The position numbers and the translations under genes are program-made. The notes beneath the pieces are model-generated. The model ran no database searches, was not told the origin of the DNA, and was given only the letters and a program-made list of their open reading frames with translations. This document shows, one piece after another, positions 1,525 to 63,680 of a stretch of DNA of 64,000 nt. The stretch lies in UHGV virus genome UHGV-0125682. One strand, 5' to 3'. The stretch's first letter is position 1. Each line of letters opens with the position of its first letter. This stretch comes from a virus.

Positions 1525-4500
1525 TTGAACAAGTCAGTTACTTCCGCGCTATCCGAAGCAGCAGACATTAACAGTGTTATTGCGCTGGTTTCTTCATTAG
1601 AGAGGCGAGAAACACGCCAGGGGCGCAGTAGTTACGTAGTCACCAGTAAAGGGGCAGAGGTAAAGACGGCTTTTAAGGTCGTTGATGCCAGCAGTCTGAT
1701 CATTTCGAACAACCTTGACGGTACGATTAATCCGGCCTTCCCGGAAGAACTCCAGCCACGTGACCGTACACGGCTATCAAGCAAACTCCAGGTTAACCGT
1801 ATTGCCTCCAATTTACGCCCGGCACAATTAACGGATTCCGGCATGAGCAGCCACGGAGCGCCGATAGTTGGTCCGGACAACGTTGTTGAATCCGGCAACG
1901 GAAGGAGCATGGGTATCTGGCGTGCCTATGAGCAAGGGCAGGCGGATGAATATCGCCAGTACCTGATCGATCATGCAAAAGAGTTTGGTCTGAATCCTGA
2001 CGACATTTCACAAATGTCTATGCCCGTATTGGTGCGAGAAAGACTCACAGATGTAGACCGCGCACAATTTGCCCGCGATTCAAACATCAGCGATCTGCAA
2101 GAGATGGCTGCAAGTGAAAAAGCGTATGCGGATGCGCAATTTCTCACTGAGAGCGTCATGGCGCTATTTAATCCTTCAGATGATGGAAATCTACTGGCGC
2201 GGTCCAATGATGCGTTTATTCGTGCGTTTTTGCGCGAAATAGGTGATACGGCGACGGCAGGTTTGCTTACTGCCGATGGGCGTCCAACGAAACAACTTAT
2301 CGACCGCATCCAGAATGCAATTTTTGCCAAAGCGTACAAGGATGAAAGGCTTGTTCGGCTGGTGGCGGAAGAGCCAGATCCGGAAATGCGTAACATTCTT
2401 ACCGCATTAAATACGGCAGCCAGCGATTTTGCGCAAATGCAGTCGCTTTCAGGTGATGTTCACCATGACACGGTAACCGGACTGGTAGACGGTATAGAGC
2501 AATTGAATGGTCTGGATAAACAGGCTATTGCCGCGCTACAGGAAGCAATTAACCTTGTTCGTGAAGCAAAAGATAACGGTCAGGCAGTAGAAGAGGTGAT
2601 CGCACAGCGTGGATTGTTTGGAGATAGCACTCCGGAAGCAGAAGCGCTTGCTCTGTTTATTGTTGCCAACAACCGAAGCGCTAAGCGAATGGGGGCAGCT
2701 TTCAAGAAACTGGCGCAAAAAATTAACGATGAACTTATTCACCAGCAACAAGCGTTAGGCGATATGTTCGGCGGCGGAGATGTCGATCTGCGTAGCATTT
2801 TATCTGCCGTTTCTGATGAAATTGAGGCTGAGTATGGCGAAGGTAAAGGGCTTAATTTCGCCATGTTTGAATCGGTTTCAGGAGAGGTCGAACCATACAT
2901 TTCAAAGCTAATTGCTGATGCGACCAGCGTGGAGGACTTGATCCGAATCGTGAAGGTGTCAGAAAAAATTAAGGAGTCCGCAAAAAAAATAAAGCGCAAT
3001 GTATTTTTGGAACTTGGTTTTTATATTCGCAATGTCACCGTTAATGAGATTAAGGAGTGGGCTAAACGTTATGGATACAGCGACGCTGTGTTAACAACGA
3101 TGTTATTGTCTTATCAACGCAGCAATTTTTATGCTAACGCACTGCGTGACGCGATTGAAAAAGGAGATGAAGCTCCTTCGCTCGCAGATGAAAGAAATAT
3201 TGATTGTGATATTGAAACGTTTTGCAACATATCAGAAGAAGGCGTGCCCGCTGAACAATTTATACGTGTTTTACATAATGCAGCAAAACATATTCCTGAT
3301 GACTTTAGTATTGATGAATTGCGCAATGGTTGTCTTGTTTGGTTAGGTAACTATTTAAAATCTCCAGCGTCTATTGCAGAGAAAACAGCTTTAAGATTTA
3401 GAAAGGAAATGAATAAAGCTGGAAGCGCAGAAGAGATGGTGTGCATAATCCAAAATACTTTGAAGTTATTCAAAAAGAGCTTGCATAATATCGACGATAT
3501 TATGGCGGCTGGTAGGAAAATAACAGCCAGTGTCGGAGTTAGCTCTGAACTAACGGCAGAGGAGATCGCTGATGCGTATATTGAGACACTTGTCAGGCTT
3601 AAGGAGATAGTGGAATTAGCAGAGCATTCCTCATATTACGGAATCAAGGAGCGTGTTGACTTTACTATAGAACAAATCAATAAAGTTAGGTCAAATAAGG
3701 AAAAACTCACTGACTACCTTGCTGATGTTTTGCACCAGAATGATCATGGGATTGGATATGATCTGAAAAAAATGCTTGTTTTTAATCTGGACATACCGGA
3801 AGACTTGCAAGCAGAACTATATGAAATAGCTTCATTAACACGTGGACAAAAAGCCTATCCTAATGCGCTTGAAAATGTAGTACATAAAAAAGTCAGAGCC
3901 GCATTTGACATGATTCTTGAATCGTCAAATGTGTCACATGACCAGTCTAAGGAATGGAGTCGTGGGATTGCTATTTCTGATGAAGCAGAGCAGTTAAGTG
4001 GTCACGATAATGAAACTTTCTCCCGTAAAGCATACAGTATTCGCGAGACGATTGAAAAAGCCTATATTATTTCAGGAGGGACTTTATCTACATTAAAAAA
4101 TATTAACCACAAGAACAATGTTCGTGCTTTTGCAAGTCGAAATGGGAATATAACAATTGATGCTAATAGTGATCACGAGCGTGTATTATGGCATGAAATA
4201 GGTCACCATATAGAACATTCAAATCCCCATCTATTGGAGAGGGCCAAAGCCTTCATTAAATCAAAAACTAACGGTAAAGTTTCTTATCATAATATTGGTA
4301 GCCGTGGCAGTGCTGAGTATTTGGTGCGAACCGACCTAAGTCATGGATATATGTCTAAAATTTATATGGAAAATACGGTAAGTTCTGTCAGCGGCAGATT
4401 TATATCAAAGCCACCTGCATTAAGCAATTGCAGGGCGACTGAGATTTTTTCTATGGCCTTGCAGATGTATGCCGATCCGGAGCAGGCGACTAACTCTGTA

Positions 4501-4566
4501 TTAAACAATGACGGCGTGCTGGAATTTTTCTTGGGATGTATGAAGGAGTTGCAAAATGAAGTATAG
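1525..4566 (+). CDS. large polyvalent virion-type protein: ParB-like N-terminal motifs, HExxH metallopeptidase-like motif near C-terminus (P1 DdrB-sized)
   Basis: 1013-aa ORF; N-terminal NPAFPEELQPRDRTRL and GNGRSMGIWRA resemble ParB/Srx nuclease-domain motifs; WHEIGHH at about aa 885; C-terminal half markedly more AT-rich. Confidence 0.65.
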   Translation: MNKSVTSALSEAADINSVIALVSSLERRETRQGRSSYVVTSKGAEVKTAFKVVDASSLIISNNLDGTINPAFPEELQPRDRTRLSSKLQVNRIASNLRPAQLTDSGMSSHGAPIVGPDNVVESGNGRSMGIWRAYEQGQADEYRQYLIDHAKEFGLNPDDISQMSMPVLVRERLTDVDRAQFARDSNISDLQEMAASEKAYADAQFLTESVMALFNPSDDGNLLARSNDAFIRAFLREIGDTATAGLLTADGRPTKQLIDRIQNAIFAKAYKDERLVRLVAEEPDPEMRNILTALNTAASDFAQMQSLSGDVHHDTVTGLVDGIEQLNGLDKQAIAALQEAINLVREAKDNGQAVEEVIAQRGLFGDSTPEAEALALFIVANNRSAKRMGAAFKKLAQKINDELIHQQQALGDMFGGGDVDLRSILSAVSDEIEAEYGEGKGLNFAMFESVSGEVEPYISKLIADATSVEDLIRIVKVSEKIKESAKKIKRNVFLELGFYIRNVTVNEIKEWAKRYGYSDAVLTTMLLSYQRSNFYANALRDAIEKGDEAPSLADERNIDCDIETFCNISEEGVPAEQFIRVLHNAAKHIPDDFSIDELRNGCLVWLGNYLKSPASIAEKTALRFRKEMNKAGSAEEMVCIIQNTLKLFKKSLHNIDDIMAAGRKITASVGVSSELTAEEIADAYIETLVRLKEIVELAEHSSYYGIKERVDFTIEQINKVRSNKEKLTDYLADVLHQNDHGIGYDLKKMLVFNLDIPEDLQAELYEIASLTRGQKAYPNALENVVHKKVRAAFDMILESSNVSHDQSKEWSRGIAISDEAEQLSGHDNETFSRKAYSIRETIEKAYIISGGTLSTLKNINHKNNVRAFASRNGNITIDANSDHERVLWHEIGHHIEHSNPHLLERAKAFIKSKTNGKVSYHNIGSRGSAEYLVRTDLSHGYMSKIYMENTVSSVSGRFISKPPALSNCRATEIFSMALQMYADPEQATNSVLNNDGVLEFFLGCMKELQNEV

Positions 4567-8351: not shown

Positions 8352-8369
8352 AGTTAAATTTCTAACATA
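8352..8369 (+). promoter_or_regulatory. operator-like 17-bp repeat (TTTCTAACA core)
   Basis: aaatttctaacatag upstream of repL-like gene. Confidence 0.55.
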
Positions 8370-8457
8370 GTGTATTTATATACACTGTTGATCCTGGTGG
8401 ATGGGATCGAGTAGGATCGCGGTCACTGCTCCGGTAGCGACTGCCAAAAAAGCAAAA

Positions 8458-11713: not shown

Positions 11714-14700
11714 TTGGACAAATTACTTCATTCAATCAGTGAAGCCTCCAGCTTAGGCGAACTGATTGAAATTGTTAGTCGGTTGCATAAATTACGTGCT
11801 GTTGCGACCTTTGGCGTCAGGAAAGCCGATGGCGTCAGTATTCAGAAAACACGCCGTGCAGCAAACAATGCCGCAGTAAATCTTCTTAATTCCCTTCCGC
11901 CCGGCTTCGATGGGGCGAAATTAACTGACGAACAACGTCAGATTCTTGCTGGGTATACCGGTGAAGGCGGCCTGACAGATGGTGAGGGCAGCCAATACGA
12001 ATACTACACGCCACAGTTTATGGCTGAAGGTATATGGGATCTGTTTGCTGACTACGGTATTGATGGCGGGCACGTACTGGAACCATCAGCGGGCACAGGT
12101 ATTTTCCAGGAGACAAAACGGCAGGGCATGATAATGACCAGCGCCGAACTGTCTCCGATTTCTGGTCGAATAAACCAGCTTTTGCACCCGGAAGACGATG
12201 TGAATATCGGGGCGTTTGAGGCGCTGGCGGCGAAAGATGCAATGTATGACCACGCTGTTGGTAACGTACCGTTTGGTGAAGGGCGTTCCGGCGTTGCCGG
12301 GCTTGATCCGGCATATGCAAACGAGAAGAACGTTGGCAATTACTTTGTGCTGCGCACGATCGACAAGGTTAAGCCAGGTGGGCTTATCGTATTGGTGGTG
12401 CCGAATGGCATGACCGATGGTACGAAATATAAAAAATTGCGCGATAAAGTCAGCCGTAAAGCGGAATTTTTGGGCGCACATCGTATGCCTTCCGGTACGT
12501 TCAGCGAATCTGGAACAGATACCGTGGTGGACGTATGGGTATTGCGTAAACACCCGGAAACCTTCCTGGAGATGATCCCCGACACGGATGATGCAACGCT
12601 CAAATCGGCAAACGTCCTTTGGGATACCTTCCTCAAAGGGAAATGGTTTACAACCGATGGGAAGCGATTTGTTTACGGCGACATGGAACGTACCAGCTTC
12701 CGCAATACCCTGGTGGTGAAAAAAGACGGTCGTGTATCCAATGAGTCGATGAAAACCGCGCTATCTCGTCGCTTTGATAGTCGCATCAATTGGGATTTGC
12801 TCGGCGTAACTACTCAGGCATGGCAGGGCGCGAAAGTGGGCGATAAACGCCTTGTAGGCGGTATCTGGCATGAGTTTGATGGTCTGAAATGGGTTAAGGA
12901 CACGACAACCAAATCCTCCGCGCTTGATGTAAGTCGATATGGTGTTTCGACGTTTGGCGATCTGCAGATCGCGTTCCAGTCAACAAACGGGATTCTGGCT
13001 TTGTCATGGGACCAGATATCGGCGATCGCGTCCGACTATCCATCGGTTGTCAGTGATGAAGTGGCAGCAATGATTCGCTTTGCTGGCAAACAGCGAGAAA
13101 AAGACAGGGAGCGCGTTATGCGCGGTGCGTTGATAGGGCAGTTGATCAACAAGGCACTTGATTTGCGTAACCTGGGGGTGAACGTTGATGACAAACTGGC
13201 AGATGCATCCCGCCTGGCGGCAGCAGAAGTTGCGAAGTATGGACCACCGCACGCGATTAAGCTGAATGGGCTTGCTGAAGCTGGCGCTAAAAACTGGATG
13301 ACGTTCACTGGCAATGTGAAACAGGATGGTTCCACTTCTGACCTTCTGGCAGGGCGACTTGATGTAACGGATGGTGCTGCCGGTATTGACTTTACGCGTC
13401 CTGAACAAGTGATAGCACATCTTTTTAGTGATGTAGCCCTTAATCCTATAACGCTGGGCGACTTTCGTGAGGCGTTTGCTGGTGAACTGCCAGAGGACGA
13501 CGACGCGGTCCTTGAATACCTGGCGAAATTTGATGATATCGCTATTGATGGGTATGGCTGTCTGCTGCCGATGGACCGCGCCACCAGCGGCGATGTTGCA
13601 ACCAAAACAGCACTGCTGGTGGGCTGGCGTGATGCGTCAACAGGTGAGCAGAAAGCGAACTTTGAGCGTCAGTTGGCGAAAATCGAAGAGAAACGCATTT
13701 TCACGCCACTAAATAAAGTCACCGTTAATCTGAATGCCCGCTGGCTGGATCGCCGCTTGATAAAAGAGTTCCTGGCAGAGCAGGGCTATGACGAGTTTAA
13801 GTACACTGAACCTGATCTGAAGGTCGTCGATGGCATTCTGGTATCTCCGGACGATTACGAAGGTAAGGACGGGGTATTTACCGGCTATCAGCTACGAACC
13901 GTAAACGGCAAAAACGGGAATGAGTTCAAGAAGGCCAACAATAAAGACGGCTTCCTGAACCAGTTAGAAAACTACCTGAACGGTGTTAAACCGCGTGGGC
14001 AGAACGCTAACGAGTACCTGGATAAAATTGCTCAACTGGAAGTTAGTTTTAACGACTGGTTACGCACTCACCCGCAGGCTGATCAGATAGCCCGCGAGTA
14101 TAACGACGCATTCAATGGTTTCATTCCGTTCACGCATTCTGACGCACCGCTTGGCCTGGAAGGGCTTAGTGGAAAGCGCATTCCTCTTACTTATCAGAAT
14201 GAAGAAGTTCGGCGCTTGTCAGAAGATGGGCGCGGCATCATGGGATTTGGTACCGGGCTGGGTAAAACCACGACCGCGCTTGCGCTTGAGGCGTATAACT
14301 TCGAAACAGGTCGCACTAAACGCACGTGTATTGTTGTTCCGAAGGCGGTTTATCAGAACTGGTATCACGAGGCACAGAGTTTCTACAGTGCTGATGCCTT
14401 CGCCAATATGATGTTTATCGGTTTGGATGAAGTTCGTGATGACAGCGGAAATATTCTGACCGCGCCGGTGCTTGATGAAAATGGCGAACCACGCCTCGAC
14501 AGTAACGGGCAGCCTCTTACCAGAAATGTTGTGAAAGAGTCCGCCAGCGCCGTTATCGTTCAGCGTATGAACATGATCCCGTCGTCAAATTGGCGAACGG
14601 TCATCATGACAAAAGAACAATTCGCGTCTATCCCGCTACGAGAAAAAACCATCGAGGAGAACTCACAGCAAGCTGTCTTTAATGCTGTGGAAATGGGGCG

Positions 14701-17700
14701 TCTTGACCTGGCGTCCGGTAAACACCGTGATGCGCAGAAGAAGAACAAGATTAAGGATCAGGCCGCGAATACCGGTACAACGAAGAAGCAGAATATCCCG
14801 TACTTTGAGGATATGAACTTCGATAGCGTGATTGCCGACGAGGGGCATAATTACCGCAACTCCTTTAATGCCGGGCGTGAAGCGGGACAACTGGCATATT
14901 TGCCTAACCCGGCAGTATCCAAGATGGCCCGCGACATGGCTGTAAAAGCTGCGTACATGATGAAACGCAACAACGGGCGTGGTGTAGTCATGCTGACGGC
15001 AACTCCGCTGGTGAACAGTCCGATTGATGCCTTCAACATGCTGTCTACTGTCATTCCGCAGGAAGAGTGGATGCGCATGGGTATTGTTACGCCGGATGAT
15101 TTCGTTCGCGTGTTCGGCAAAACAGCCACAGTTCAGGTTCAGAAAATTTCCGGTGAGGTGGAAGAGAAGCAGGGGCTGGTGGGCTTCCAGAACCTTGATG
15201 GTCTGCGTGGTATTTTCCACCGTTGGACCACTCTGAAGACTGCCGCAGATGTCGGAGCGACGGTTAAAATTCCCGATATCATCGAGAACACCTTGCAGAT
15301 CCCGATGACAGGGGAGCAGGAGGCTGCTTATGAAGAGCTTCGTAAGCGTGCTCAGGAGTTAAGTCGCAATGATGAGCTGACAGTCGATGAAAACGGGCAT
15401 ATCACTAACGACAAACCGGATGATTTCATCTTCTCCATCATCCGCGACATGGATAAGGTTGCTATAGATCCGGATCTGTATGCCAGTGCGATTACATTCC
15501 AGTTCCCCGTTGAGCTTGCAGACAAGGTAAAAGCTATTGCTGATGCCCTGCCAAAAGTCGCAGGCGGTAAAGTGGCAGATGATGCAGACGAGGCCGAAGA
15601 AGACGGCGCTGGTGGACTGGTCAGTACGCGTACCAGCAAGGTAGTGAAGACCACCTTTAGTGAACATCCGGCGCATGTTGAAATACGCGCCAGCATTGAA
15701 CTGGAAGCTGAAATACTGAAGGCCATTGCTGCCGCCGGGATTGATCTGCAGCAGGTATCACACCCCATCCCACCGAAGTATGCCGCGCTGATCGAAAACC
15801 TTCGTGAAGGTCTGAAGAACGGTAAACAAATTGTCTTCATTGATGAAAAAGCCCAGCACCAGAAGCTGCGCCGTATTATCGCCAGTGCACTGCAAATGCC
15901 GGAGCAGGAGATAGGCATTATCAATGCGACGACCGTTAGCCAAGCTGGCGGCATCAAGCTGAAGAAGGTGAATAAACCGACTGAACCTACTCCGAATAAA
16001 AACGGTGAATACAAAGAAGGGGCATGGGAAACCTACTACAGCAAACTTGCCCAATATGAGGATTATCTCTCAGCTAAAAATGATGCTGGCCTTGAGGGCA
16101 TGGAAGGTATTGCCGCCGACTATAACGAAGGTCGCACGCGCATCATAATCTGTAACAAGAAGGCTGAAGTAGGTATTAACCTGCACATCGGGACAACCGA
16201 TATCCACCACCTGACACTACCCTGGACACCAGCCAGTATCGACCAACGAAATGGGCGCGGTGCGCGCGTAGGGTCACCGCAAGAGAAGGTCAATGTTCAC
16301 TACTATTGTGGCAAAGGCACATTCGATGACTTCCGTCTGGATACGCTTAAACGTAAGAAAGACTGGATCAAGATGGTGATGACCTCCGACATGTCAGAGA
16401 TCGCCAATGGTGATGCGGATGATGCTGATGAACGCGCCATTATGCTGGCGGCAAACCCGGAAGAACGCCGCGCAATCATGGCTCGCCAGGCGCAAGAGCG
16501 TGAAGAACGTCTGAAACTGAAAGCACAGCGCGAGGCCAACAATGCTCTCGATATCTACCTGAAAGCGGCAAACGCCGCCGGAAAAGATATCGGCATGATG
16601 GAGACAGAACTGAAAAGCGCGATGGAACAGATAGAGTATTACCAGCGAAATCTTGACGACCTGATAAAAGCGGGTACGAACAGGAATGGGCAAAAATACG
16701 CGCTTGAGCAGTTGAGTAGCTACAGAAAACGTGCGCGGGTGCTGCGGTTTGCGATCACCAGGGCAAAAGACGCGGATACCATAATGAAACGCTCTCGTGG
16801 TGATGTGGAGCGCGCTATTAAGTCTGGTGTGCTGGATATCAGTATCGATGTTATTCAGAACCCACAGGAATATATGCGCACTGACAAGAATATCCTGTTG
16901 CATAAAGGTAGTTATTACCGTGCAGTCATTGATGATCGCGAAACAACAGCGATTGTCCGGGTGGAAAAAATTGACGGTGAAAAAGCACAATACCTCTGCC
17001 GTATCGCCTGGCTGGATAGAGCAAGTCGTTACGCTCGAGCACCGGGGTCAATCGTTACATTGCCGTTTGACTCTGTGATTGAAGCGGTAACTTTTGAAGA
17101 GGGGGTAGCTGAATCGCGCGCAACGGCTGCGCGAGGTGTTCAGTGCCACCAGCTATCAACAATACTTACTCGCGATCAGTTCTATGATGCTATTCGCAAT
17201 GGGGTAATGAATGTTATTGCTGGTAAACCTGGTAATGCATGGGGCGGTGGGTCAGCTATTAAATACTGGGCATATCGCACAGATGATGGTCAGATCGCGC
17301 TGTCATCGGCCTATGATGGCGTGATAGGCCAAAAAATCGGGCGAGCATCGGATATAGCACCTGAGCGATGGATATATCCTGATGGCAACGACGAGGCGCT
17401 GAAGCGTGAAGTGGCAAAAATACAAGCCAGTGATAACCCGCTGAATATCGTGGACGGCGAGGGATTCCTCCAGGCATTGTATGGGTATGATTACACCCAG
17501 GGAATGCAGGCATGGGGCGCACAGGCAACGATGGATGATGTTGCCCATGAGTTCGAAAACTGGATGGCTGGGCGTGGTCTGTCAGGTCGTTCGCTTAATA
17601 AAGTCACTTCTGAAGATATTCTTAGCTTGTTCCGCAAACCGTCCGGAGAAGGTCTGGAATCATTCTGGAGGACCGTGCTGGCATACCGTTTATTCCAGGG

Positions 17701-18550
17701 CAGGATGAAAGCCTTTAGCAATATCGATGATATTGAACGGATGTTTAATCAGGTCAAGATCGCGAAAATTAAGGCGAAGATCGAAAAAACACGTTCTGCG
17801 CTGGTGGCCTGGCGCGATGCATTGTTTGAGCAATATAAATCACTCAGTGATGCAGATGGATGGGCGGCATTGGAACAGCTGGCGAATAATGGGGTAGATG
17901 GAGCGAAACTCGCCATTGTTCAGGCTGATAACCCCCTGGAATCACCGGCAGCACAGTGGATTAAGGTGGGGGCTGTCATCAATGCATTTGATGAAAAACA
18001 CATTAGTAAGGACGATTTTGCTGATGCTGTTTCTGTTAATCGCCTGGTAGAAATGGCTACCCGCCGCGCCCGTGAGTTGAAAGACGGCGACTATGTGAAT
18101 GAGTTGCCGGATACGCTCAAATCGGCAACGTGGCAGGACTATGTATCGCTGAAAAACGGCGGGGCCACTGAATCAGAGATCGCGGAAAGGCTTGAGCAGG
18201 CTGAAAGCAAAAGAGAAGAGCAGGCGGCAGTGGCTGAAGCCAGAGCTGATGAAGCGGCGAATGATGACTATATCATTGTGGTTAATGATAAGCCGATTCG
18301 CGCTAAGGCGCGTGTTCGCGGGCGCTGGTGGAGCGTCAGCGAGGACGTTGGCGCGGTTTATCTCATTGCCGACCAACCAGGTTCCTCGACAATACGGAAC
18401 GCCAAAGACGCGATTAAGAAGATTGGCGGACGTTTCTGGAATTTTGAAGCAAACCCGGTTGCTGATGTGAACTTTGACCGTCCTGCATGGATGGTATCTA
18501 CGCGTTACTCGGTAGATGAACTGCGTAAAATAATCGCCGATGCGGCCTAA
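11714..18550 (+). CDS. darB: DarB-like antirestriction protein: N6-adenine methyltransferase fused to DExH helicase
   Basis: 2278 aa; AdoMet motif EPSAGTGIF, NVPF catalytic motif, Walker A GFGTGLGKTT around aa 842, DEGH motif around aa 1040. Confidence 0.8.
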   Translation: MDKLLHSISEASSLGELIEIVSRLHKLRAVATFGVRKADGVSIQKTRRAANNAAVNLLNSLPPGFDGAKLTDEQRQILAGYTGEGGLTDGEGSQYEYYTPQFMAEGIWDLFADYGIDGGHVLEPSAGTGIFQETKRQGMIMTSAELSPISGRINQLLHPEDDVNIGAFEALAAKDAMYDHAVGNVPFGEGRSGVAGLDPAYANEKNVGNYFVLRTIDKVKPGGLIVLVVPNGMTDGTKYKKLRDKVSRKAEFLGAHRMPSGTFSESGTDTVVDVWVLRKHPETFLEMIPDTDDATLKSANVLWDTFLKGKWFTTDGKRFVYGDMERTSFRNTLVVKKDGRVSNESMKTALSRRFDSRINWDLLGVTTQAWQGAKVGDKRLVGGIWHEFDGLKWVKDTTTKSSALDVSRYGVSTFGDLQIAFQSTNGILALSWDQISAIASDYPSVVSDEVAAMIRFAGKQREKDRERVMRGALIGQLINKALDLRNLGVNVDDKLADASRLAAAEVAKYGPPHAIKLNGLAEAGAKNWMTFTGNVKQDGSTSDLLAGRLDVTDGAAGIDFTRPEQVIAHLFSDVALNPITLGDFREAFAGELPEDDDAVLEYLAKFDDIAIDGYGCLLPMDRATSGDVATKTALLVGWRDASTGEQKANFERQLAKIEEKRIFTPLNKVTVNLNARWLDRRLIKEFLAEQGYDEFKYTEPDLKVVDGILVSPDDYEGKDGVFTGYQLRTVNGKNGNEFKKANNKDGFLNQLENYLNGVKPRGQNANEYLDKIAQLEVSFNDWLRTHPQADQIAREYNDAFNGFIPFTHSDAPLGLEGLSGKRIPLTYQNEEVRRLSEDGRGIMGFGTGLGKTTTALALEAYNFETGRTKRTCIVVPKAVYQNWYHEAQSFYSADAFANMMFIGLDEVRDDSGNILTAPVLDENGEPRLDSNGQPLTRNVVKESASAVIVQRMNMIPSSNWRTVIMTKEQFASIPLREKTIEENSQQAVFNAVEMGRLDLASGKHRDAQKKNKIKDQAANTGTTKKQNIPYFEDMNFDSVIADEGHNYRNSFNAGREAGQLAYLPNPAVSKMARDMAVKAAYMMKRNNGRGVVMLTATPLVNSPIDAFNMLSTVIPQEEWMRMGIVTPDDFVRVFGKTATVQVQKISGEVEEKQGLVGFQNLDGLRGIFHRWTTLKTAADVGATVKIPDIIENTLQIPMTGEQEAAYEELRKRAQELSRNDELTVDENGHITNDKPDDFIFSIIRDMDKVAIDPDLYASAITFQFPVELADKVKAIADALPKVAGGKVADDADEAEEDGAGGLVSTRTSKVVKTTFSEHPAHVEIRASIELEAEILKAIAAAGIDLQQVSHPIPPKYAALIENLREGLKNGKQIVFIDEKAQHQKLRRIIASALQMPEQEIGIINATTVSQAGGIKLKKVNKPTEPTPNKNGEYKEGAWETYYSKLAQYEDYLSAKNDAGLEGMEGIAADYNEGRTRIIICNKKAEVGINLHIGTTDIHHLTLPWTPASIDQRNGRGARVGSPQEKVNVHYYCGKGTFDDFRLDTLKRKKDWIKMVMTSDMSEIANGDADDADERAIMLAANPEERRAIMARQAQEREERLKLKAQREANNALDIYLKAANAAGKDIGMMETELKSAMEQIEYYQRNLDDLIKAGTNRNGQKYALEQLSSYRKRARVLRFAITRAKDADTIMKRSRGDVERAIKSGVLDISIDVIQNPQEYMRTDKNILLHKGSYYRAVIDDRETTAIVRVEKIDGEKAQYLCRIAWLDRASRYARAPGSIVTLPFDSVIEAVTFEEGVAESRATAARGVQCHQLSTILTRDQFYDAIRNGVMNVIAGKPGNAWGGGSAIKYWAYRTDDGQIALSSAYDGVIGQKIGRASDIAPERWIYPDGNDEALKREVAKIQASDNPLNIVDGEGFLQALYGYDYTQGMQAWGAQATMDDVAHEFENWMAGRGLSGRSLNKVTSEDILSLFRKPSGEGLESFWRTVLAYRLFQGRMKAFSNIDDIERMFNQVKIAKIKAKIEKTRSALVAWRDALFEQYKSLSDADGWAALEQLANNGVDGAKLAIVQADNPLESPAAQWIKVGAVINAFDEKHISKDDFADAVSVNRLVEMATRRARELKDGDYVNELPDTLKSATWQDYVSLKNGGATESEIAERLEQAESKREEQAAVAEARADEAANDDYIIVVNDKPIRAKARVRGRWWSVSEDVGAVYLIADQPGSSTIRNAKDAIKKIGGRFWNFEANPVADVNFDRPAWMVSTRYSVDELRKIIADAA

Positions 18551-26505: not shown

Positions 26506-26579
26506 CAACTTTTTGCCAGTCTATACAGAAATAACATTCTCATTATCATCCCCTCGGTCATTTCCTGCCTGGGGGATTA

Positions 26580-26972
26580 ATGGAGCATATCAGCAGCGCA
26601 GAAATTGCGGATATCATGATTAGGGCTGACTGCTATCTGACAGTCACCGAAATCACCACTCTAGCTAAAGAAAAATATCCTCACCTTCATGTTTCACGCG
26701 TAAGTGTAACCAACATCATTCGGCATTTTGTGCGGTCAAGCCGAGCTATTTGTGAGCTTGATGATCGTGTTTACCCACGGAAATACTGGTTGCATGGCCT
26801 GAACGGATATCAGTTCAAGGTGCGCGGGCGCACGCCTGAATACGGTAGCTTACTGGTTAAAAACTGTAGCAGGAAATCAGTCGAACAGGCGCGAAAAGAG
26901 CAACGAGAGCTGGTGGACATGGCGAATAAGCTGTGGAATGCCGCCGTTAAAAAGCGTGGTGTTGCTTTATGA
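26580..26972 (+). CDS. hypothetical protein, possible late-gene activator (Lpa position upstream of pacA)
   Basis: Position only; stop overlaps pacA start. Confidence 0.35.
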   Translation: MEHISSAEIADIMIRADCYLTVTEITTLAKEKYPHLHVSRVSVTNIIRHFVRSSRAICELDDRVYPRKYWLHGLNGYQFKVRGRTPEYGSLLVKNCSRKSVEQARKEQRELVDMANKLWNAAVKKRGVAL

Positions 26973-28333
26973 GTCTGGTTAATTGGGAGGAGCACCGCGC
27001 CCGCTTTATAGCGTTGCGTGAAGAAAAAGGGATCACTGTAAAGGAATACTGTGAGGAGCATGGCCTTAGCTTCAATACAGCCAGAAAGCATCTCAATATG
27101 AAAAAAAATGAGGTGCGGTCGCAGGTAAAGACAACAAAAAAAAGCACCAAATCACCTGAAAAAAAACGGGCGGGAAGAGCAACAAAAAAGCTGGAAGAGG
27201 GTGCAGAAAAAACAAAATTTACAGAAATTGACAATTCGCAGGGCGCAGGTTCTTTCCGAAGTATGCCGAGAAAGAAAACTTCGGATCATGAAAATAATGC
27301 AAATAATAACAATGAGATAAAAGAATCTGTCAGGAGATCATTGCGCGAAAAAATGGCGAAAATGATCCCCGAAGAAGATAAAAGCGCCCCAAAAATTGAG
27401 GGATCTTCAGCAATGATCCCTGGCGGTGCTGTGCAGCGTGCCACATTGCCCACTACGAATGTGGCTCGCGATATGATGAAGAACGGCGCAGAAGAACACC
27501 TGCGGTTAGCAATTCAAATGGCGCAAGAGCGCGCACTTCAGTATCAAAGCATTGTTGATCAGGAGGCCGAACGTCTACAGGCGGAAATAGACGCCTTGGG
27601 CGATAAAGAGCCAGAAGGAATGCACCCTGGGCAGCGCCTTCTCGGTCTAATCAGTGACGCTGCCTACTACATGAATGATTTTATCAGTAGGTTGGCAGCT
27701 ATATATCAGTCCGAACAAAAGCTGCGACAGGGGGATGAAAAGCTTCGTCAGAGCGCTCGCCAGCAAGCATTCAAAGAGGCTGAGGCCAGAGAAAAACTCG
27801 AATTAGCACGCCTACAGGCCGAACAGCGTGGCAAAGAGATTGAATATCGCATTGGCGCTGACGCACGCGCAGCCAGAGTTATCGCCGCCGCTATACGTAT
27901 GCGTGAGCGCGAGGAACTGGATGATATCAGTGTTGCTGAATACATCGAGCGCCAGGGGGTCAGCGTCCCGGCTATCCTCGCGGCGCGCGCGGCGAAAGCT
28001 ATCACTCTTCTCGAACCACCTGTTTCTGACGTCAATGATGTTGATGATGAACAGCTGGACAAAGAGGCAAGGGAGTTTGCAACGCTTCAGGCTAACCATC
28101 CGCAATGGCTGGCAGAGCGCCGGGCGGATGTGGCAACCATTGTTGAAGAATTGGGGTGCGGAGATTACGACCGCAATGGCGAGCGTAAAGCTGGAGAATT
28201 CGAGGCCAACGACGAAGAGCTGGATATTGACCCTTCGGCAACGGCTGAAATTTACGGTGATTATGATGCATCTGATGCAGGGTATGACGCCGGAGATGAT
28301 GATATCGCGATAGAACCGCCGGAGGATGATTAA
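26969..28333 (+). CDS. pacA: terminase small subunit PacA-like
   Basis: Immediately upstream of and overlapping terminase large subunit; N-terminal HTH-like segment; contains GATC cluster. Confidence 0.65.
   Translation: MSLVNWEEHRARFIALREEKGITVKEYCEEHGLSFNTARKHLNMKKNEVRSQVKTTKKSTKSPEKKRAGRATKKLEEGAEKTKFTEIDNSQGAGSFRSMPRKKTSDHENNANNNNEIKESVRRSLREKMAKMIPEEDKSAPKIEGSSAMIPGGAVQRATLPTTNVARDMMKNGAEEHLRLAIQMAQERALQYQSIVDQEAERLQAEIDALGDKEPEGMHPGQRLLGLISDAAYYMNDFISRLAAIYQSEQKLRQGDEKLRQSARQQAFKEAEAREKLELARLQAEQRGKEIEYRIGADARAARVIAAAIRMREREELDDISVAEYIERQGVSVPAILAARAAKAITLLEPPVSDVNDVDDEQLDKEAREFATLQANHPQWLAERRADVATIVEELGCGDYDRNGERKAGEFEANDEELDIDPSATAEIYGDYDASDAGYDAGDDDIAIEPPEDD
27280..27420 (+). promoter_or_regulatory. 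candidate pac site (GATC cluster)
   Basis: Five GATC in 135 bp (27284, 27336, 27364, 27402, 27415), two as TGATCC, inside pacA. Confidence 0.45.
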
Positions 28334-29841
28334 TGGCTGGCGGGCGCAAGATTAAATGCGTCACCAGCGATCCACGCTGGCGCGATATGGTAATCAAATA
28401 CCGCTACAACTTTACCCAAGCTGTTGTCGATATTTTTGGGATGTTCCCCTCCCACCAGCAGCAGCAGATCATTCAGTCAGTGCAGGAAACGGGGAGTAGG
28501 ACTACCGTCACGTCCGGACACGGAACGGGGAAGTCGTCCCTTACCGCGATGTTGCTGTTGATTTTTATGATCCTGTTCCCCGATGCCCGTGTCATCATTG
28601 TTGCTAACAAGATAGGCCAGGTAAAAACAGGCGTATTCAAATACGTTAAACAGTATTGGGCGAATGCAGTTAAGCGTCATGGGTGGTTGCAGACCTATTT
28701 TGTCCTCTCTGACACCATGTTTTATGAGCGCTCCCGTAAGGGGATTTGGGAAGTTCTCTGCAAAGGTTATCGACTCGGCAACGAAGAAGCGCTGGCGGGG
28801 GAACATGCGGCACATTTGCTTCTAATTCTGGATGAAGCATCTGGTATATCTGATAAGGCGATCGGCGTAATGACCGGTGCTCTTACTGAAGAAGATAACC
28901 GGATGTTGATGCTATCCCAGCCAACAAGGCCAAGTGGTTATTTCTACGATTCGCACCATTCTCAAGCAAAAACCCCAGACAACCCGAAAGGGATCTGGAC
29001 AGCAATTGTTCTTAACTCGGAAGAATCACCGTTCGTCACACCACAATTCATCAAGCAGAAGCTTCTGGAATATGGCGGGCGCGATTCTATTGAGTACATG
29101 GTCAAGGTGCTTGGTCAGTTCCCACGAGAAATTAACGGCTATTTGCTTGGTCGTGATGAATGCGATCGCGCAGCTCGCCGCAAGGTGTTGTTGGAGAAAA
29201 ACTGGGGATGGGTGGCAACGGCTGACGTTGGTAATGGGCGAGATAAGTCGGTCCTCAACATCTGCAAGGTATCTGGTCACAGGGATAAGCGGCGCGTTGT
29301 TAACTTTAAGGTAATGGAGATGCCTGGCACTATGGACCCATTGGCCTTTGCTGACTTCATATATAACGAATGTACGCCGGAAAAATACCCGAATATAACA
29401 ATCGCGGTTGATGCCGATGGTTTTGGTTCTGATACGTGTGCGCAGTTGGTGCGTCGTGGTGCGAACCCGGTACGTATTCGGTGGGGAAAACCCATGTTTG
29501 CAAACAAAGACAGGGAGCGATTTGTTAATCAGCGTGCCTACGCAAATATTATCGCGCGAGATGCCATAAAGTCAGGGCGTATGCGGATAGACAGTGACCC
29601 TAAAACGGCAGAGCAAGCGTCAAAAATCCCCTTTTTACTGAATGAAGAAGGGAAAATGGCGATGATGCGCAAAGAGCACATGCGGCAAAAGCTAAACATC
29701 AAATCGCCTGACCGATGGGATACCTACTGCTTCACTATGCTGGTGGACTATGTGCCTGCTAATGAAGATATTGGTGCCGAAATGGCAACTTTTCGGGATC
29801 AGGTTCTGGCGGATATCGAAATGCCGGATCTGGATATATAA
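28333..29841 (+). CDS. pacB: terminase large subunit PacB-like
   Basis: Walker A SGHGTGKSS, Walker B LLLILDEASG, C-terminal acidic nuclease-type residues (AVDADGFGSD). Confidence 0.85.
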   Translation: MAGGRKIKCVTSDPRWRDMVIKYRYNFTQAVVDIFGMFPSHQQQQIIQSVQETGSRTTVTSGHGTGKSSLTAMLLLIFMILFPDARVIIVANKIGQVKTGVFKYVKQYWANAVKRHGWLQTYFVLSDTMFYERSRKGIWEVLCKGYRLGNEEALAGEHAAHLLLILDEASGISDKAIGVMTGALTEEDNRMLMLSQPTRPSGYFYDSHHSQAKTPDNPKGIWTAIVLNSEESPFVTPQFIKQKLLEYGGRDSIEYMVKVLGQFPREINGYLLGRDECDRAARRKVLLEKNWGWVATADVGNGRDKSVLNICKVSGHRDKRRVVNFKVMEMPGTMDPLAFADFIYNECTPEKYPNITIAVDADGFGSDTCAQLVRRGANPVRIRWGKPMFANKDRERFVNQRAYANIIARDAIKSGRMRIDSDPKTAEQASKIPFLLNEEGKMAMMRKEHMRQKLNIKSPDRWDTYCFTMLVDYVPANEDIGAEMATFRDQVLADIEMPDLDI

Positions 29842-31106: not shown

Positions 31107-31138
31107 TCGGCATTTTATAACTTTAAATAATTGGCATT
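31107..31138. other. rox: rox/lox-type recombination site (14-bp arms, 4-bp spacer)
   Basis: TAACTTTAAATAAT-TGGC-ATTATTTAAAGTTA, perfect inverted arms, 164 bp upstream of cre-like gene. Confidence 0.8.
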
Positions 31139-31153
31139 ATTTAAAGTTAGGCT

Positions 31154-60502: not shown

Positions 60503-61408
60503 ATGAGATCAGTCGCTTTCAAAAATATCTTCATCTATCGTCTTTCACGCGAAGTTAGCTGGGATACTGCAGAAGTAAATGCAGCCCTTAGCAAGTTTGT
60601 GTTTACCCCATGCGGTTCTCAGGATATGACTAAAGCTGGTTGGACCCCCGTTCTTGGTGACAACCTCACCCATGAATACCAGGGTTTTCTTCTGATACAG
60701 CATAAACGAGAGGAAAAAATCCTACCTTCTCAAGTGCTCAAAGAAGAGTTACAGAAAAAAATCCTGACACTTGAAGAAGAGCAAGACAGAAAGCTGAAGA
60801 AGACCGAAAAAGATTCGCTGAAGGATGAAGTGCTTCACTCTCTTCTTCCTCGTGCTTTCACGAGAAAATCAGTCGCTAAAATCCTGATAGACCGAAGCAA
60901 TCATCTGGTTTTTGTCGAGGCCAGCAGTGCTAAAAAAGCAGAGGATCAGCTGGCTTTGTTACGGAAATCGCTTGGCAGCTTGCCAGTGGTCCCCTTCTCT
61001 CCGAAAGACCCATTAGAACTGACCATCACTGGCTGGATTAAAAATGGCTTCCCGAACGGTTTCCGTGCCGGTGAGGAAGCGACTTTAAAAGCATTGCTTG
61101 ATGATGGCGGCGCGGTCCGCTGCAAAAAAGTGGACCTGCTATCCGACGAGATAATGAGTCATATAGAAGCTGGTAAGGTTGCAACCACAGTTGCGGTCAA
61201 CTGGCAAGACCGTGCATTTTTCAGACTGAATGACGATATGAGTATCAAGGCTTTGTCGTTCAGCGACGAATTGTACGACCAGAACGACGGTATTGATCGA
61301 GAGGATGTTGCGCAACGATTTGACGCTGACTTTATCCTATTTACTGCTGAATTATCAGCGATGTTCACCTCGCTAGTGGAGGCCGTTGGTGGTGAAGCAG
61401 AACGTTAA
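60503..61408 (+). CDS. rdgC: RdgC-like recombination-associated protein
   Basis: Closely resembles bacterial RdgC as I recall it ([70 protein letters not shown]). Confidence 0.85.
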
Positions 61409-63680
61409 CCTTCGATATGGTTCAGTTTGCAGTGGAATTGAAGCCGCGAGCATTGCCTGGGAACCGTTGGGTATGCGTCCGGCGTGGTTTGCTGAAATTG
61501 AGCCTTTTCCATCTGCCGTTCTTGCGCACCGCTGGCCTCATGTCGCCAACCTTGGCGATATGACAAAACTTGCCAAAAAAGTCCTGGCTGGGGAAATCGA
61601 ATCCCCTGATGTGCTCGTCGGGGGAACACCTTGTCAGGCATTCAGTATCGCGGGATTACGTGGTGGGCTTGATGATGAGCGCGGCGCGCTAACTTTGAAG
61701 TATGTGGAGCTTGCAAATGCAATTGACGACAAACGGTCTGAGTCCTTCCTCAAACCGACAGTTATCGTCTGGGAAAATGTCCCAGGAGTCCTGTCATCGG
61801 CAGATAACGCCTTCGGATGTTTCCTTGCCGGATTGGCTGGAGAAGATGCACCATTTGAACCAGGTGATCGACCTGAATCAGGAAAAAGTAACGCGTTCTG
61901 GCGGTGGGATGGCAAAACCGGTTGCCATGCTCCAAAGTGGCCGCAGTGTGGTTGTATTTATGGACCGCAGCGAAAGGTGGCCTGGAGAATACTTGATGCC
62001 CAATACTTCGGAGTGGCACAACGACGCCGACGCGTGTTTGTTGTCGCAAGTGCTCGAACAGACCTCGATCCCGCAACGGTACTTTTTGAGTTCGAAGGCG
62101 TGCGCCGGGATATTGCGCCGAGCCGAAAAAAGAAGGAAATCGCTTCCGCCATTATTGCAAATGGCGCTGCAATCAGTGGCGAAAGCCTAAATCCATGCCT
62201 ACACGCTGACATTCCACCCGGTATGAAATCGACGAAAGCCGTAAACGCTTTCAGGATGGCAGCATTTGGGGAATATATTGACGATGAAACCGCATCGACA
62301 GTAAAGGCAAGAGATTTTAAAGATGCCACTGACCTTGCCGTTTTTAGCAGCACAGGAGCAGGTTTTTGGTCAGAAGGGCATGGTACATTGCGGGCACGTG
62401 AGCAAGAAAGCCATGAGCATCTTGTTACATTGGCTTTTCCTGAGCGTATGAGCGGTACACAACATGCTGCAACTAAGAATACTTCACCATCTCTAATGGC
62501 TAAAAATCCAACAGCTGTTTGCTATGAAGTAAGAAACGCAGAAGTAGCTGTCCGCCGTCTTACCCCTGTCGAATGTGAAAGGCTGCAAGGTTTTCCTGAT
62601 GGGCATACGTTGATCCCGACGGAAAAGCGTAAAAAAGTTAATTCAGATGAACTGGCATATCTTCGCAATCACTATCCAGATTTAAGCGAAGAAGAGGCCG
62701 CGATGCTTGCAGCTGACGGACCGCGTTACAAAGCGATCGGCAACAGCATGGCAGTTCCTGTTATGCAATGGATAGGGTGTCGCATTCTTGCGACCGTAGC
62801 GGATAAACAGCAAAAAACAATAAATACCATTACCTACACAAGAAAACTCCGGACTCCGGATGAATATGAACGCCCAATATTCAAATGGGTAGGCGGTAAA
62901 TTCTCAGAGTTGCCTACAGTGCTTGAGCATCTACCACACGGCAAGCGGTTAATAGAACCATTCGTTGGTGGCGGTTCCGTATTTACGAATGCAGGATTTC
63001 GCCACAACCTGCTTAATGATATTAACGGTGACCTGATTAACTTCTATCAGACATTGCAGCGAGAAGGACATTCGCTCGTCACGCTGTCATATAGTTTTTT
63101 CCAAAATTACAACAACGCTGACGCTTACCTCGAAGTGCGTGAGGCATTTAACAGAGGAAAGTATGACCAGCTACATCATGCTGCCGCCTTTTTGTACCTT
63201 AATCGGCACTGTTTTAATGGCGTAACGCGGTACAACCAAAATGGCGAGTTCAACGTGGGGTATGGCAAATACAAAGCGCCCTACTTCCCACATGCAGAGA
63301 TGGAGGCATTTTTGGCTGATGACGTACTCAAAAACACGTCCTTTGTATCAGGTGACTTTGCTGGCGTCATCGAGGCGGCTGGTGAAGGCGATGTGATTTT
63401 TTGCGATCCGCCGTATGAACCGCTGCCGGATACAGAAGGGTTTACCAGTTATTCAGGAAATAGCTTCCGTTTCGACGAACAGAAACGGCTGGTATCTCTA
63501 TTGGTGGAAGCCCACCAGCGCGGCGCTAAGGTAGTGATAACAAATAGTGGTGCGCCAAACATCCGTGAACTATATGAAGGAAACGGGTTTAAAGTACATC
63601 ATATGGCAGCCAGACGGTCGGTGTCCTGCAAGGCGTCAACACGTGTAGTTGCTAACGATATAATTGCAATAATGAAGTAA
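61389..63680 (+). CDS. dmt: Dmt-like bifunctional DNA methyltransferase (C5-cytosine N-terminal, Dam-like N6-adenine C-terminal)
   Basis: PCQ motif GGTPCQAFS and ENV motif; C-terminal KWVGGK and DPPY; GTG start after GGAGG RBS, overlapping rdgC end. Confidence 0.85.

Follow-up and report, generated by a model that had tools for sequence, protein, structure and literature searches.

Results and Discussion

The GATC cluster in pacA and its repeat units

The window analyzed in this study, a stretch of 64,000 nucleotides (nt) from the virus genome UHGV-0125682, is 98.3-98.4% identical to the Escherichia phage D6, a phage-plasmid, and contains lpa, pacA, pacB, c1, rox, and dre in the same order as P1 (Table 1). 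Within pacA, the gene for the terminase small subunit, five GATC sites are found whose outer bases span 135 bp, which is the densest such group of the 64-kb window. The sequence comparisons described below, together with the analogy to P1, make it probable that this cluster is a D6-type pac site, belonging to the P1-type, methylation-linked family but with variant features. Neither of the two D6 records has an annotated pac feature, and no mention of a D6 pac site was found in the literature searched; an earlier description of the site is still possible.

The cluster covers nt 316-450 of pacA, inside the 5′ third of the gene, and is wholly intragenic. A preliminary description of the sequence had already pointed to five GATC sites in 135 bp of the terminase small-subunit gene and proposed a pac site like that of P1; the exact sites could all be located in the PacA open reading frame (ORF). 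The density of the cluster was rejected as evidence, since five GATCs within 135 bp occurred somewhere in 25% of dinucleotide-preserving shuffles of the window, which in total contains slightly fewer GATCs than its shuffles (232 observed vs. 254 ± 16). When the amino-acid sequence of PacA was kept fixed and codons were resampled according to the codon usage of the window, the segment of residues 101-155 was expected to contain 1.8 ± 1.0 GATCs, compared to the five observed (P = 0.007), and the rest of pacA 3.7, compared to two observed.

Table 1. Coordinates of the repeat units and of associated features in the window.
Feature	Position	Strand	Description
Unit 1	27282-27290	-	top strand CGGATCATG, bottom strand CATGATCCG; GATC 27284-27287
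Unit 2	27334-27342	-	bottom strand AATGATCTC; GATC 27336-27339
Unit 3	27361-27369	+	AATGATCCC; GATC 27364-27367
Unit 4	27400-27408	-	top strand GGGATCTTC; degenerate in the window lineage; GATC 27402-27405
Unit 5	27412-27420	+	AATGATCCC; GATC 27415-27418
Possible distal unit 0	27029-27037	-	bottom strand AGTGATCCC; GATC 27031-27034; 253 bp upstream of unit 1
A/T-rich spacer	27291-27333		separates units 1 and 2; includes an IHF-like 13-mer (27307-27319) with a conserved TAACA (27307-27311)
Non-GATC block	27216-27234		AATTTAC-N6-TGACAA; upstream of unit 1
pacA	26969-28333	+	terminase small subunit (pacase A); 454 amino acids, 1365 nt; houses the cluster
pacB	28333-29841	+	terminase large subunit (pacase B); 502 codons; presumed nuclease and motor
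lpa homolog	26580-26972		PF25716, E = 1e-56
rox	31118-31149	+	Dre recombinase site; exact 32-bp palindrome; annotated in D6
dmt	61386-63680	+	predicted bifunctional C5-cytosine and Dam-class N6-adenine methyltransferase

The five GATC sites are each part of a polar element of about 9 nt, AATGATCC(C), which is present in both orientations. Exact copies of the 9-mer AATGATCCC are found on the top strand (units 3 and 5, which form an exact direct repeat 51 bp apart), a copy with one mismatch lies on the bottom strand (unit 2), and looser bottom-strand matches correspond to units 1 and 4. The polarity of units 1 to 5 is thus minus, minus, plus, minus, plus, with GATC start-to-start distances of 52, 28, 38, and 13 bp and an overall layout of one plus four units separated by a 48-bp spacer. 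Units 2 and 3 form a 10-nt inverted repeat of 90% identity, which is perfect in the lineages L009 and L007. In the diverged lineage L009, where unit 4 reads AGGGATCATT and is separated from unit 5, its perfect 10-nt inverted counterpart, by only 3 nt, both pairs (2/3 and 4/5) are perfect inverted repeats of 10-11 nt. Repeats with such a structure are typical of arrays bound by proteins.

The preliminary description had further stated that several of the sites read TGATCC. This holds for units 1, 3, and 5 when both strands are counted, the GGATCA of unit 1 being TGATCC on the bottom strand; on the top strand alone it applies only to units 3 and 5. The AGATCA of unit 2 corresponds to TGATCT on the bottom strand, and unit 4 (GGATCT) contains TGATC on neither strand.

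Conservation of the cluster within the D6 clade

Matches to the pacA gene of the window were found in 121 PLSDB plasmids, with identities ranging from more than 99% to about 67%. In representatives at 95, 94, 75, 75, 75, and 70% identity, GATC is present at identical gene positions (63, 316, 368, 396, 434, and 447). The GATCs further downstream in pacA (589, 634, 681, 1032, 1086, 1147, 1180, and 1261) are gained or lost among these representatives, and the GATC at 27557, located 140 bp downstream of the cluster, is free to vary and can be regarded as an internal control. When five lineages were compared, 20 out of 20 GATC columns were invariant vs. 90 out of 211 neighboring columns (43%), and the same was true for seven out of seven third-codon positions inside the GATCs vs. 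129 out of 433 elsewhere (30%).

The analysis was extended to 41 unique pacA sequences of the D6 clade from PLSDB, IMG/VR, and metagenome loci, the most distant one being 66% identical. Changes were counted by Fitch parsimony on a neighbor-joining tree, with the rest of nt 250-480 as comparison columns, and evaluated by a permutation test. The 20 GATC columns showed 0.10 changes per column compared to 1.29 in the other columns (p = 7e-5), and the seven third positions inside the GATCs were frozen, while the remaining third positions changed 1.47 times on average. The only losses of a GATC were singleton changes to GACC on terminal branches in two IMG/VR sequences, L021 (unit 2, nt 368) and L047 (unit 3, nt 396). 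One further sequence (L006; NZ_MK356557.1, pSa1423-90k) was excluded from the conservation tests because its pacA contains 18 in-frame stops. This region shows many single-base indels, yet the five GATCs are present, and it looks like a case of uncorrected sequencing error.

The individual units differ in what is kept around the GATC. In unit 1, GGATCA shows zero changes among the 41 sequences, and the codon preceding it alternates between Ser, Ala, and Glu with a constant G at its third position. Units 2 and 4 each retain the GATC (in unit 4 without any change in the 41 sequences and with variable flanks), while a codon is either AGA (Arg) or GGA (Gly). The sequence AAATGATCCC of unit 3 is constant across the lineages, and the Pro codon following its Ile ends in C, A, G, or T; the AATGATCC of unit 5 did not change at all.

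All of this takes place in a hypervariable linker of PacA, whose only conserved residues, D-H, (R/G)-S, M-I-P, (G/R)-S, and M-I-P, are those that spell the GATCs. Since the conserved linker residues are exactly the DH, GS, and MIP motifs, and since the peptide alone would yield about 1.8 GATCs, it might be assumed that the GATCs are a by-product of constraint on the PacA protein. However, at the GATCs Asp is always encoded by GAT and Ile always by ATC while neighboring synonymous sites vary, and overlapping residues do change (R/G, S/A/E) with the GATC being kept. Together with the seven frozen third positions, the low probability of five GATCs given the protein, and the fact that different peptides in other clades (DH repeats) still spell TGATC (see below), these observations make constraint on the protein a very improbable explanation. 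The invariant ATC codons and the retention of GATC despite changes in flanking codons and residues rather indicate selection at the level of DNA than of protein. Taken together, the sequence comparisons provide strong support for purifying selection on the GATCs of the cluster at the DNA level, within a hypervariable protein linker.

Three further segments of pacA might be associated with the cluster. The possible distal unit 0 matches the 9-mer at eight out of nine positions, shows zero changes in the 41 sequences and is absent from other clades; as it lies in codons of the conserved N-terminal domain (G-I-T), its conservation is not significant on its own, and it may or may not represent a left arm. 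In the A/T-rich spacer that separates units 1 and 2, the TAACA shows zero changes amid fast-evolving sequence, and this spacer is our best guess for a candidate bend or cleavage region. Finally, the non-GATC block upstream of unit 1 consists of two zero-change runs in the hypervariable linker of the 41 sequences, and a similar block (CTTACAAAAGCTGACAA) is found in the inter-array spacer of an Enterobacter outgroup (L011); the block is possibly part of pac.

Related arrays in other PacA clades

A family set of PacA genes from plasmids, IMG/VR, genomes, and metagenomes was divided into 17 clades with less than 85% amino-acid identity, including P1, D6-type, Enterobacter, Citrobacter, Leclercia, and several Pantoea groups. 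A PacA homolog was also counted on an Acinetobacter plasmid, which was left out of the comparison. Over the 17 clades, there are 16.7 GATCs per kb in nt 140-480 compared to 3.7 per kb in the rest of pacA (binomial p = 2e-20, with the clades not being fully independent). TGATCN arrays occur in this same segment in all 17 clades as well as in three still more distant loci, and according to the protein alignment they are all located in the variable linker between the conserved N-terminal domain and the conserved C-terminal part. The motif TGATCN is present on one strand at 95 out of 97 sites, unit 4 of the window being one of the two exceptions, whereas about 44% would be estimated for random flanks (1 - 0.75^2, own calculation). 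The sixth base varies from clade to clade: P1 and most of the others have A or G, the D6 clade has a C in common with L011, its nearest outgroup, and one Pantoea clade has G.

The usual layout, which the most distant loci follow as well, comprises two parts. The left array (about nt 150-250) often keeps an exact 12-bp phasing, which gives rise to x-D-H-x repeats; the right group (about nt 320-470) is located 100-200 bp away from it in the non-D6 clades. The left periodic array is missing only from the D6 clade, and the remaining 13 of the 17 clades as well as the three more distant loci possess it. The outgroup L011 (55% amino-acid identity) has units 2, 3, and 5 and the TGATCC flavor in common with D6. 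In L011, the place of the lysine-rich stretch of D6 is taken by a left array of three copies, and unit 1 is absent, SDS replacing SDH. Strikingly, a protein repeat is dictated by the DNA array in Pantoea (L014, L015, L018, and others) and in L087, where six TGATCA with exact 12-bp phasing at about nt 142-214 of pacA encode (x-D-H-x)n, an arrangement absent from the D6 clade.

With these data, a chance cluster without function can be considered effectively refuted. While the shuffled windows often contain a cluster of this density, chance would not be expected to keep the GATCs at identical positions in lineages at 66-75% identity or to produce the enrichment seen over the whole family, so that the probability left for this explanation is negligible.

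Possible methylation of the cluster

The preliminary description had also mentioned a Dam-like domain in the phage-encoded protein Dmt, which is confirmed. The N-terminus of Dmt matches PF00145 and its C-terminus PF02086 as well as TIGR00571 "dam" (246 bits vs. a cutoff of 115). This Dam-class domain aligns end to end with E. coli Dam (2g1p; E = 2e-58) and matches DpnII M1 (E = 3e-46), both of which are specific for GATC. The dmt gene of the window is 86% identical to the one in the record of phage JL22.

In P1, control of pac by methylation has been established experimentally, with the hemimethylated site being bound and cleavage being promoted by further methylation (PMC10028697). By analogy, we moderately favor a dependence of cleavage on methylation for D6 as well. 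The best indirect argument for such a requirement is that the Dam target persists while the flanking specificity drifts. Nevertheless, this persistence is not a proof, because TGATC itself could be a protein contact. A serious, albeit unlikely, alternative is that the cluster is recognized by the pacase but cleaved independently of methylation, with GATC being kept since PacA reads the TGATC bases directly. The conserved core comprises TGATC plus flanks (AATGATCC), which means that base-specific contacts could account for the conservation, and PacA is strongly diverged from its P1 counterpart, with an architecture of the site unlike that of P1. Apart from the P1 precedent, however, the drift of the sixth base and of the outer flanks across the 17 clades with the Dam target persisting, and the fact that the Dam-class domain of Dmt has been kept, argue against methylation-independent cleavage.

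Two other observations concern methylation in this element. The window contains a 2278-amino-acid ORF (11714-18550) with N6-methylase, SNF2, and helicase domains and a 1013-amino-acid ORF (1525-4566) with a ddrB-ParB domain, which we take to resemble the DarB and Ddr proteins of P1; judged by this resemblance, the element may possess a second adenine methylase activity besides Dmt. Moreover, an intergenic perfect palindrome (AGTGTATTTATATACACT) is located in 8369-8418, followed within 5 bp by three GATCs in 29 bp (8390, 8405, and 8415). This second-tightest GATC group of the window lies in a promoter-like region and may represent a methylation-sensitive regulatory site.

Searches for promoters, bending sites, and DNA ends

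Clustered GATCs are also classical targets of SeqA and Dam, and the group at 8390-8418 demonstrates that the same window contains GATCs in an intergenic, promoter-like context. The cluster in pacA might accordingly be a Dam/SeqA regulatory element, acting on pacA-pacB transcription or in sequestration, while the true pac cut would be located elsewhere. However, no sigma-70-like promoter was detected in 26600-28500 on either strand, and thus neither in nor near the cluster; the only one found lies upstream of lpa at 26522-26549. In addition, the position of the cluster is homologous to the mapped pac of P1, and the arrays of the family are always found in this segment of the packaging gene. A regulatory element is therefore regarded as quite improbable. 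An explanation of the cluster as a terminator was also discarded, as the terminator-like hits were weak minus-strand hairpins.

Candidate sites for the integration host factor (IHF) gave a mixed picture. The 13-mer in the spacer between units 1 and 2 has the same orientation as the annotated IHF site of P1 pac and agrees with it at 10 out of 13 positions. When its region was aligned locally with that of P1, the best result (13 out of 16) was no better than those of shuffles (p = 0.23), and the P1 site itself is a poor match to the consensus. A perfect IHF consensus (TATCAAAGCATTG) at 27542-27554 was rejected as a candidate, since it shows ordinary codon-type variation and is lost in the lineages at 75% identity. 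It lies 2 bp from the GATC at 27557, which is likewise not conserved in these lineages, so that both are probably incidental.

One contig break was found inside the cluster, at 27288-27297 directly after unit 1, where two contigs of the IMG assembly 2537562191 end (L052) and start (L041), respectively, with an overlap of exactly 10 bp (ATGAAAATAA). This break is ambiguous, as a target duplication of an insertion element fits at least as well as a pac end.

Proposed function of the cluster

Based on the position, conservation, and repeat structure described above, the cluster is very probably a recognition site of the pacase. In the proposed mechanism, headful packaging of the phage concatemer would start at the cluster. 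The PacA/PacB pacase would bind the elements, probably via the conserved N-terminal domain of PacA and with dimers probably occupying the inverted pairs 2/3 and 4/5, whereupon the DNA would be bent and cut nearby by PacB. The position of the cut is placed by analogy with P1 only. Packaging would then proceed rightward through pacB, c1, and rox, a direction assumed by homology with P1; in this case, the first headful would contain rox in its terminal redundancy, available for Dre-mediated circularization. Host Dam and phage Dmt would gate cleavage by methylating the GATCs at N6 of adenine, with newly replicated, hemimethylated sites being bound but left uncut and fully methylated sites being cut. 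Such gating would limit initiation to a few pac copies per concatemer.

Several observations weigh against this interpretation. As mentioned above, a GATC density like that of the cluster is not unusual in shuffled windows. PacA of the window is distant from P1 PacA, with 21% identity over the full length (E = 4e-10), and without the left array in the D6 clade the two-arm geometry of P1 is not simply transferable. No IHF consensus with up to one mismatch was found in 27200-27450, and none of about 70 IMG/VR and 15 metagenome loci provided interpretable packaging ends at their contig termini. Lastly, the singleton losses in L021 and L047 imply either that no single GATC is indispensable or that these prophages are impaired.

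A pac site determines where packaging starts and in which direction it proceeds. D6-like phage-plasmids are frequently encountered in E. coli, Salmonella, and Shigella, and knowledge of the D6 pac would help to understand transduction by this widespread group. A defined site could also be used for D6-based phagemids and packaging systems, which might be orthogonal to those of P1, and for deliberately disabling the packaging of a helper, comparable to the synonymous recoding performed in P1 (PMC10028697). Beyond this, the family is a clear example of dual coding, in which a DNA signal dictates amino-acid repeats (DH, MIP) of the protein that presumably reads it.

Genes surrounding the cluster

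The D6 annotation names the corresponding genes lpa, pacA, pacB, and c1. PacA of the window is 99% identical to D6 PacA. It falls into the terminase family phrog_1711 (E = 2e-183), and small-terminase PHROGs were matched by its N-terminus. A tblastn search of the phage collection with PacA returned D6 as sole match at E ≤ 1e-5, and a comparison of the PacA N-terminus with solved structures yielded no match at the sequence level. PacB, encoded directly downstream, is 56% identical to P1 PacB and matches phrog_2 (terminase large subunit). It is followed by a c1-like repressor gene on the opposite strand.

At the upstream border of pacA, the stop codon of lpa overlaps the start codon in an ATGA at 26969-26972, leaving no intergenic gap. 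The corresponding junction of P1 has an 85-bp gap with the late promoter LPpac, which implies that expression of pacA must be organized differently in D6-type phages.

Comparison with known systems

Several GATCs within about 100-250 bp are also found in E. coli oriC and P1 oriR, where the methylation state after replication serves as a timing signal involving Dam and SeqA. In contrast to these origins, the cluster described here is located in a packaging gene, shows neither origin features nor a promoter, and its conservation tracks the PacA family.

In headful phages of the P22, SPP1, and Sf6 type, the pac site lies inside the small-terminase gene. The D6 cluster resembles these sites in that the recognition site is part of the gene for the protein recognizing it and in that packaging would proceed by the headful mechanism. 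Their small subunits are unrelated to PacA beyond weak N-terminal PHROG matches, and we know of no GATC arrays or methylation gating for pac sites of this type.

Among the phage-plasmids of the P1/D6 superfamily, the presumed pac arrays of Enterobacter hormaechei p60214CZ_1, Pantoea, Citrobacter, and Leclercia consist, as in D6, of TGATCN in the pacA linker. D6 differs from its relatives by the missing left array and by an extra proximal unit (unit 1).

In P1 itself, the pac site lies inside pacA and is cut by PacA and PacB together with IHF or HU. This site comprises 161 bp with seven TGATCA/G hexamers, which are Dam sites, and is bent by IHF or the HU protein; synonymous recoding of the hexamers lowered the titer about 9-fold (PMC10028697). 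In the RefSeq record of P1, the pac cuts (90804-90813; about nt 275-285 of pacA) and an IHF site are annotated, both located between four TGATCA (nt 195-229) and three TGATC(A/G) (nt 325-348), and sequencing of P1 virion DNA revealed two termini 6 bp apart, in agreement with the mapping by Sternberg and Coulby (PMC5557969).

The D6 cluster shares with this site its place in the same, 5′-located segment of a homologous gene in a syntenic pacase operon, multiple TGATC repeats within coding sequence that shape the protein, a phage-encoded Dam-class Dmt, and a lox-type site a few kb downstream (rox at 3.70 kb from the cluster and lox at 3.97 kb from P1 pac). The reading as a P1-like pac site given in the preliminary description is thus supported with regard to the position in pacA, the selection at the DNA level, the arrays of the family, the encoded Dam-class methylase, and synteny, but it does not extend to the hexamer and to the layout. 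The cluster contains neither TGATCA nor TGATCG, its units being TGATCC (three), TGATCT (one), and GGATCT (one), which means that the palindromic TGATCA/G of P1 is replaced by the polar AATGATCC(C). Likewise, the bipartite arrangement of P1, four plus three sites at 7-15-bp spacing around a core of about 96 bp, contrasts with one plus four sites in inverted pairs. A comparison of the P1 pac core with the D6 spacer and upstream region revealed no residual DNA homology beyond chance.

We tentatively suggest, as a possibility that falls short of being probable, that the D6 clade has re-engineered a P1-type pac by losing the left TGATCA array with its 12-bp phasing and adopting the polar unit AATGATCC(C) in two inverted pairs with one or two outlying copies. 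If this were true, assembly of the D6 pacase on its site would follow a different geometry, possibly with dimers bound to the inverted pairs and no two-arm looping. The pacases of D6 and P1 would, moreover, be orthogonal, so that co-circulating groups could not cross-package, and the family would constitute a natural series in which the methylation target is fixed and the protein-DNA specificity drifts. Given the P1 precedent, specialists would expect the basic conclusion of a pac site at this position, and the unusual layout of D6 relative to P1 is the only mildly surprising part.

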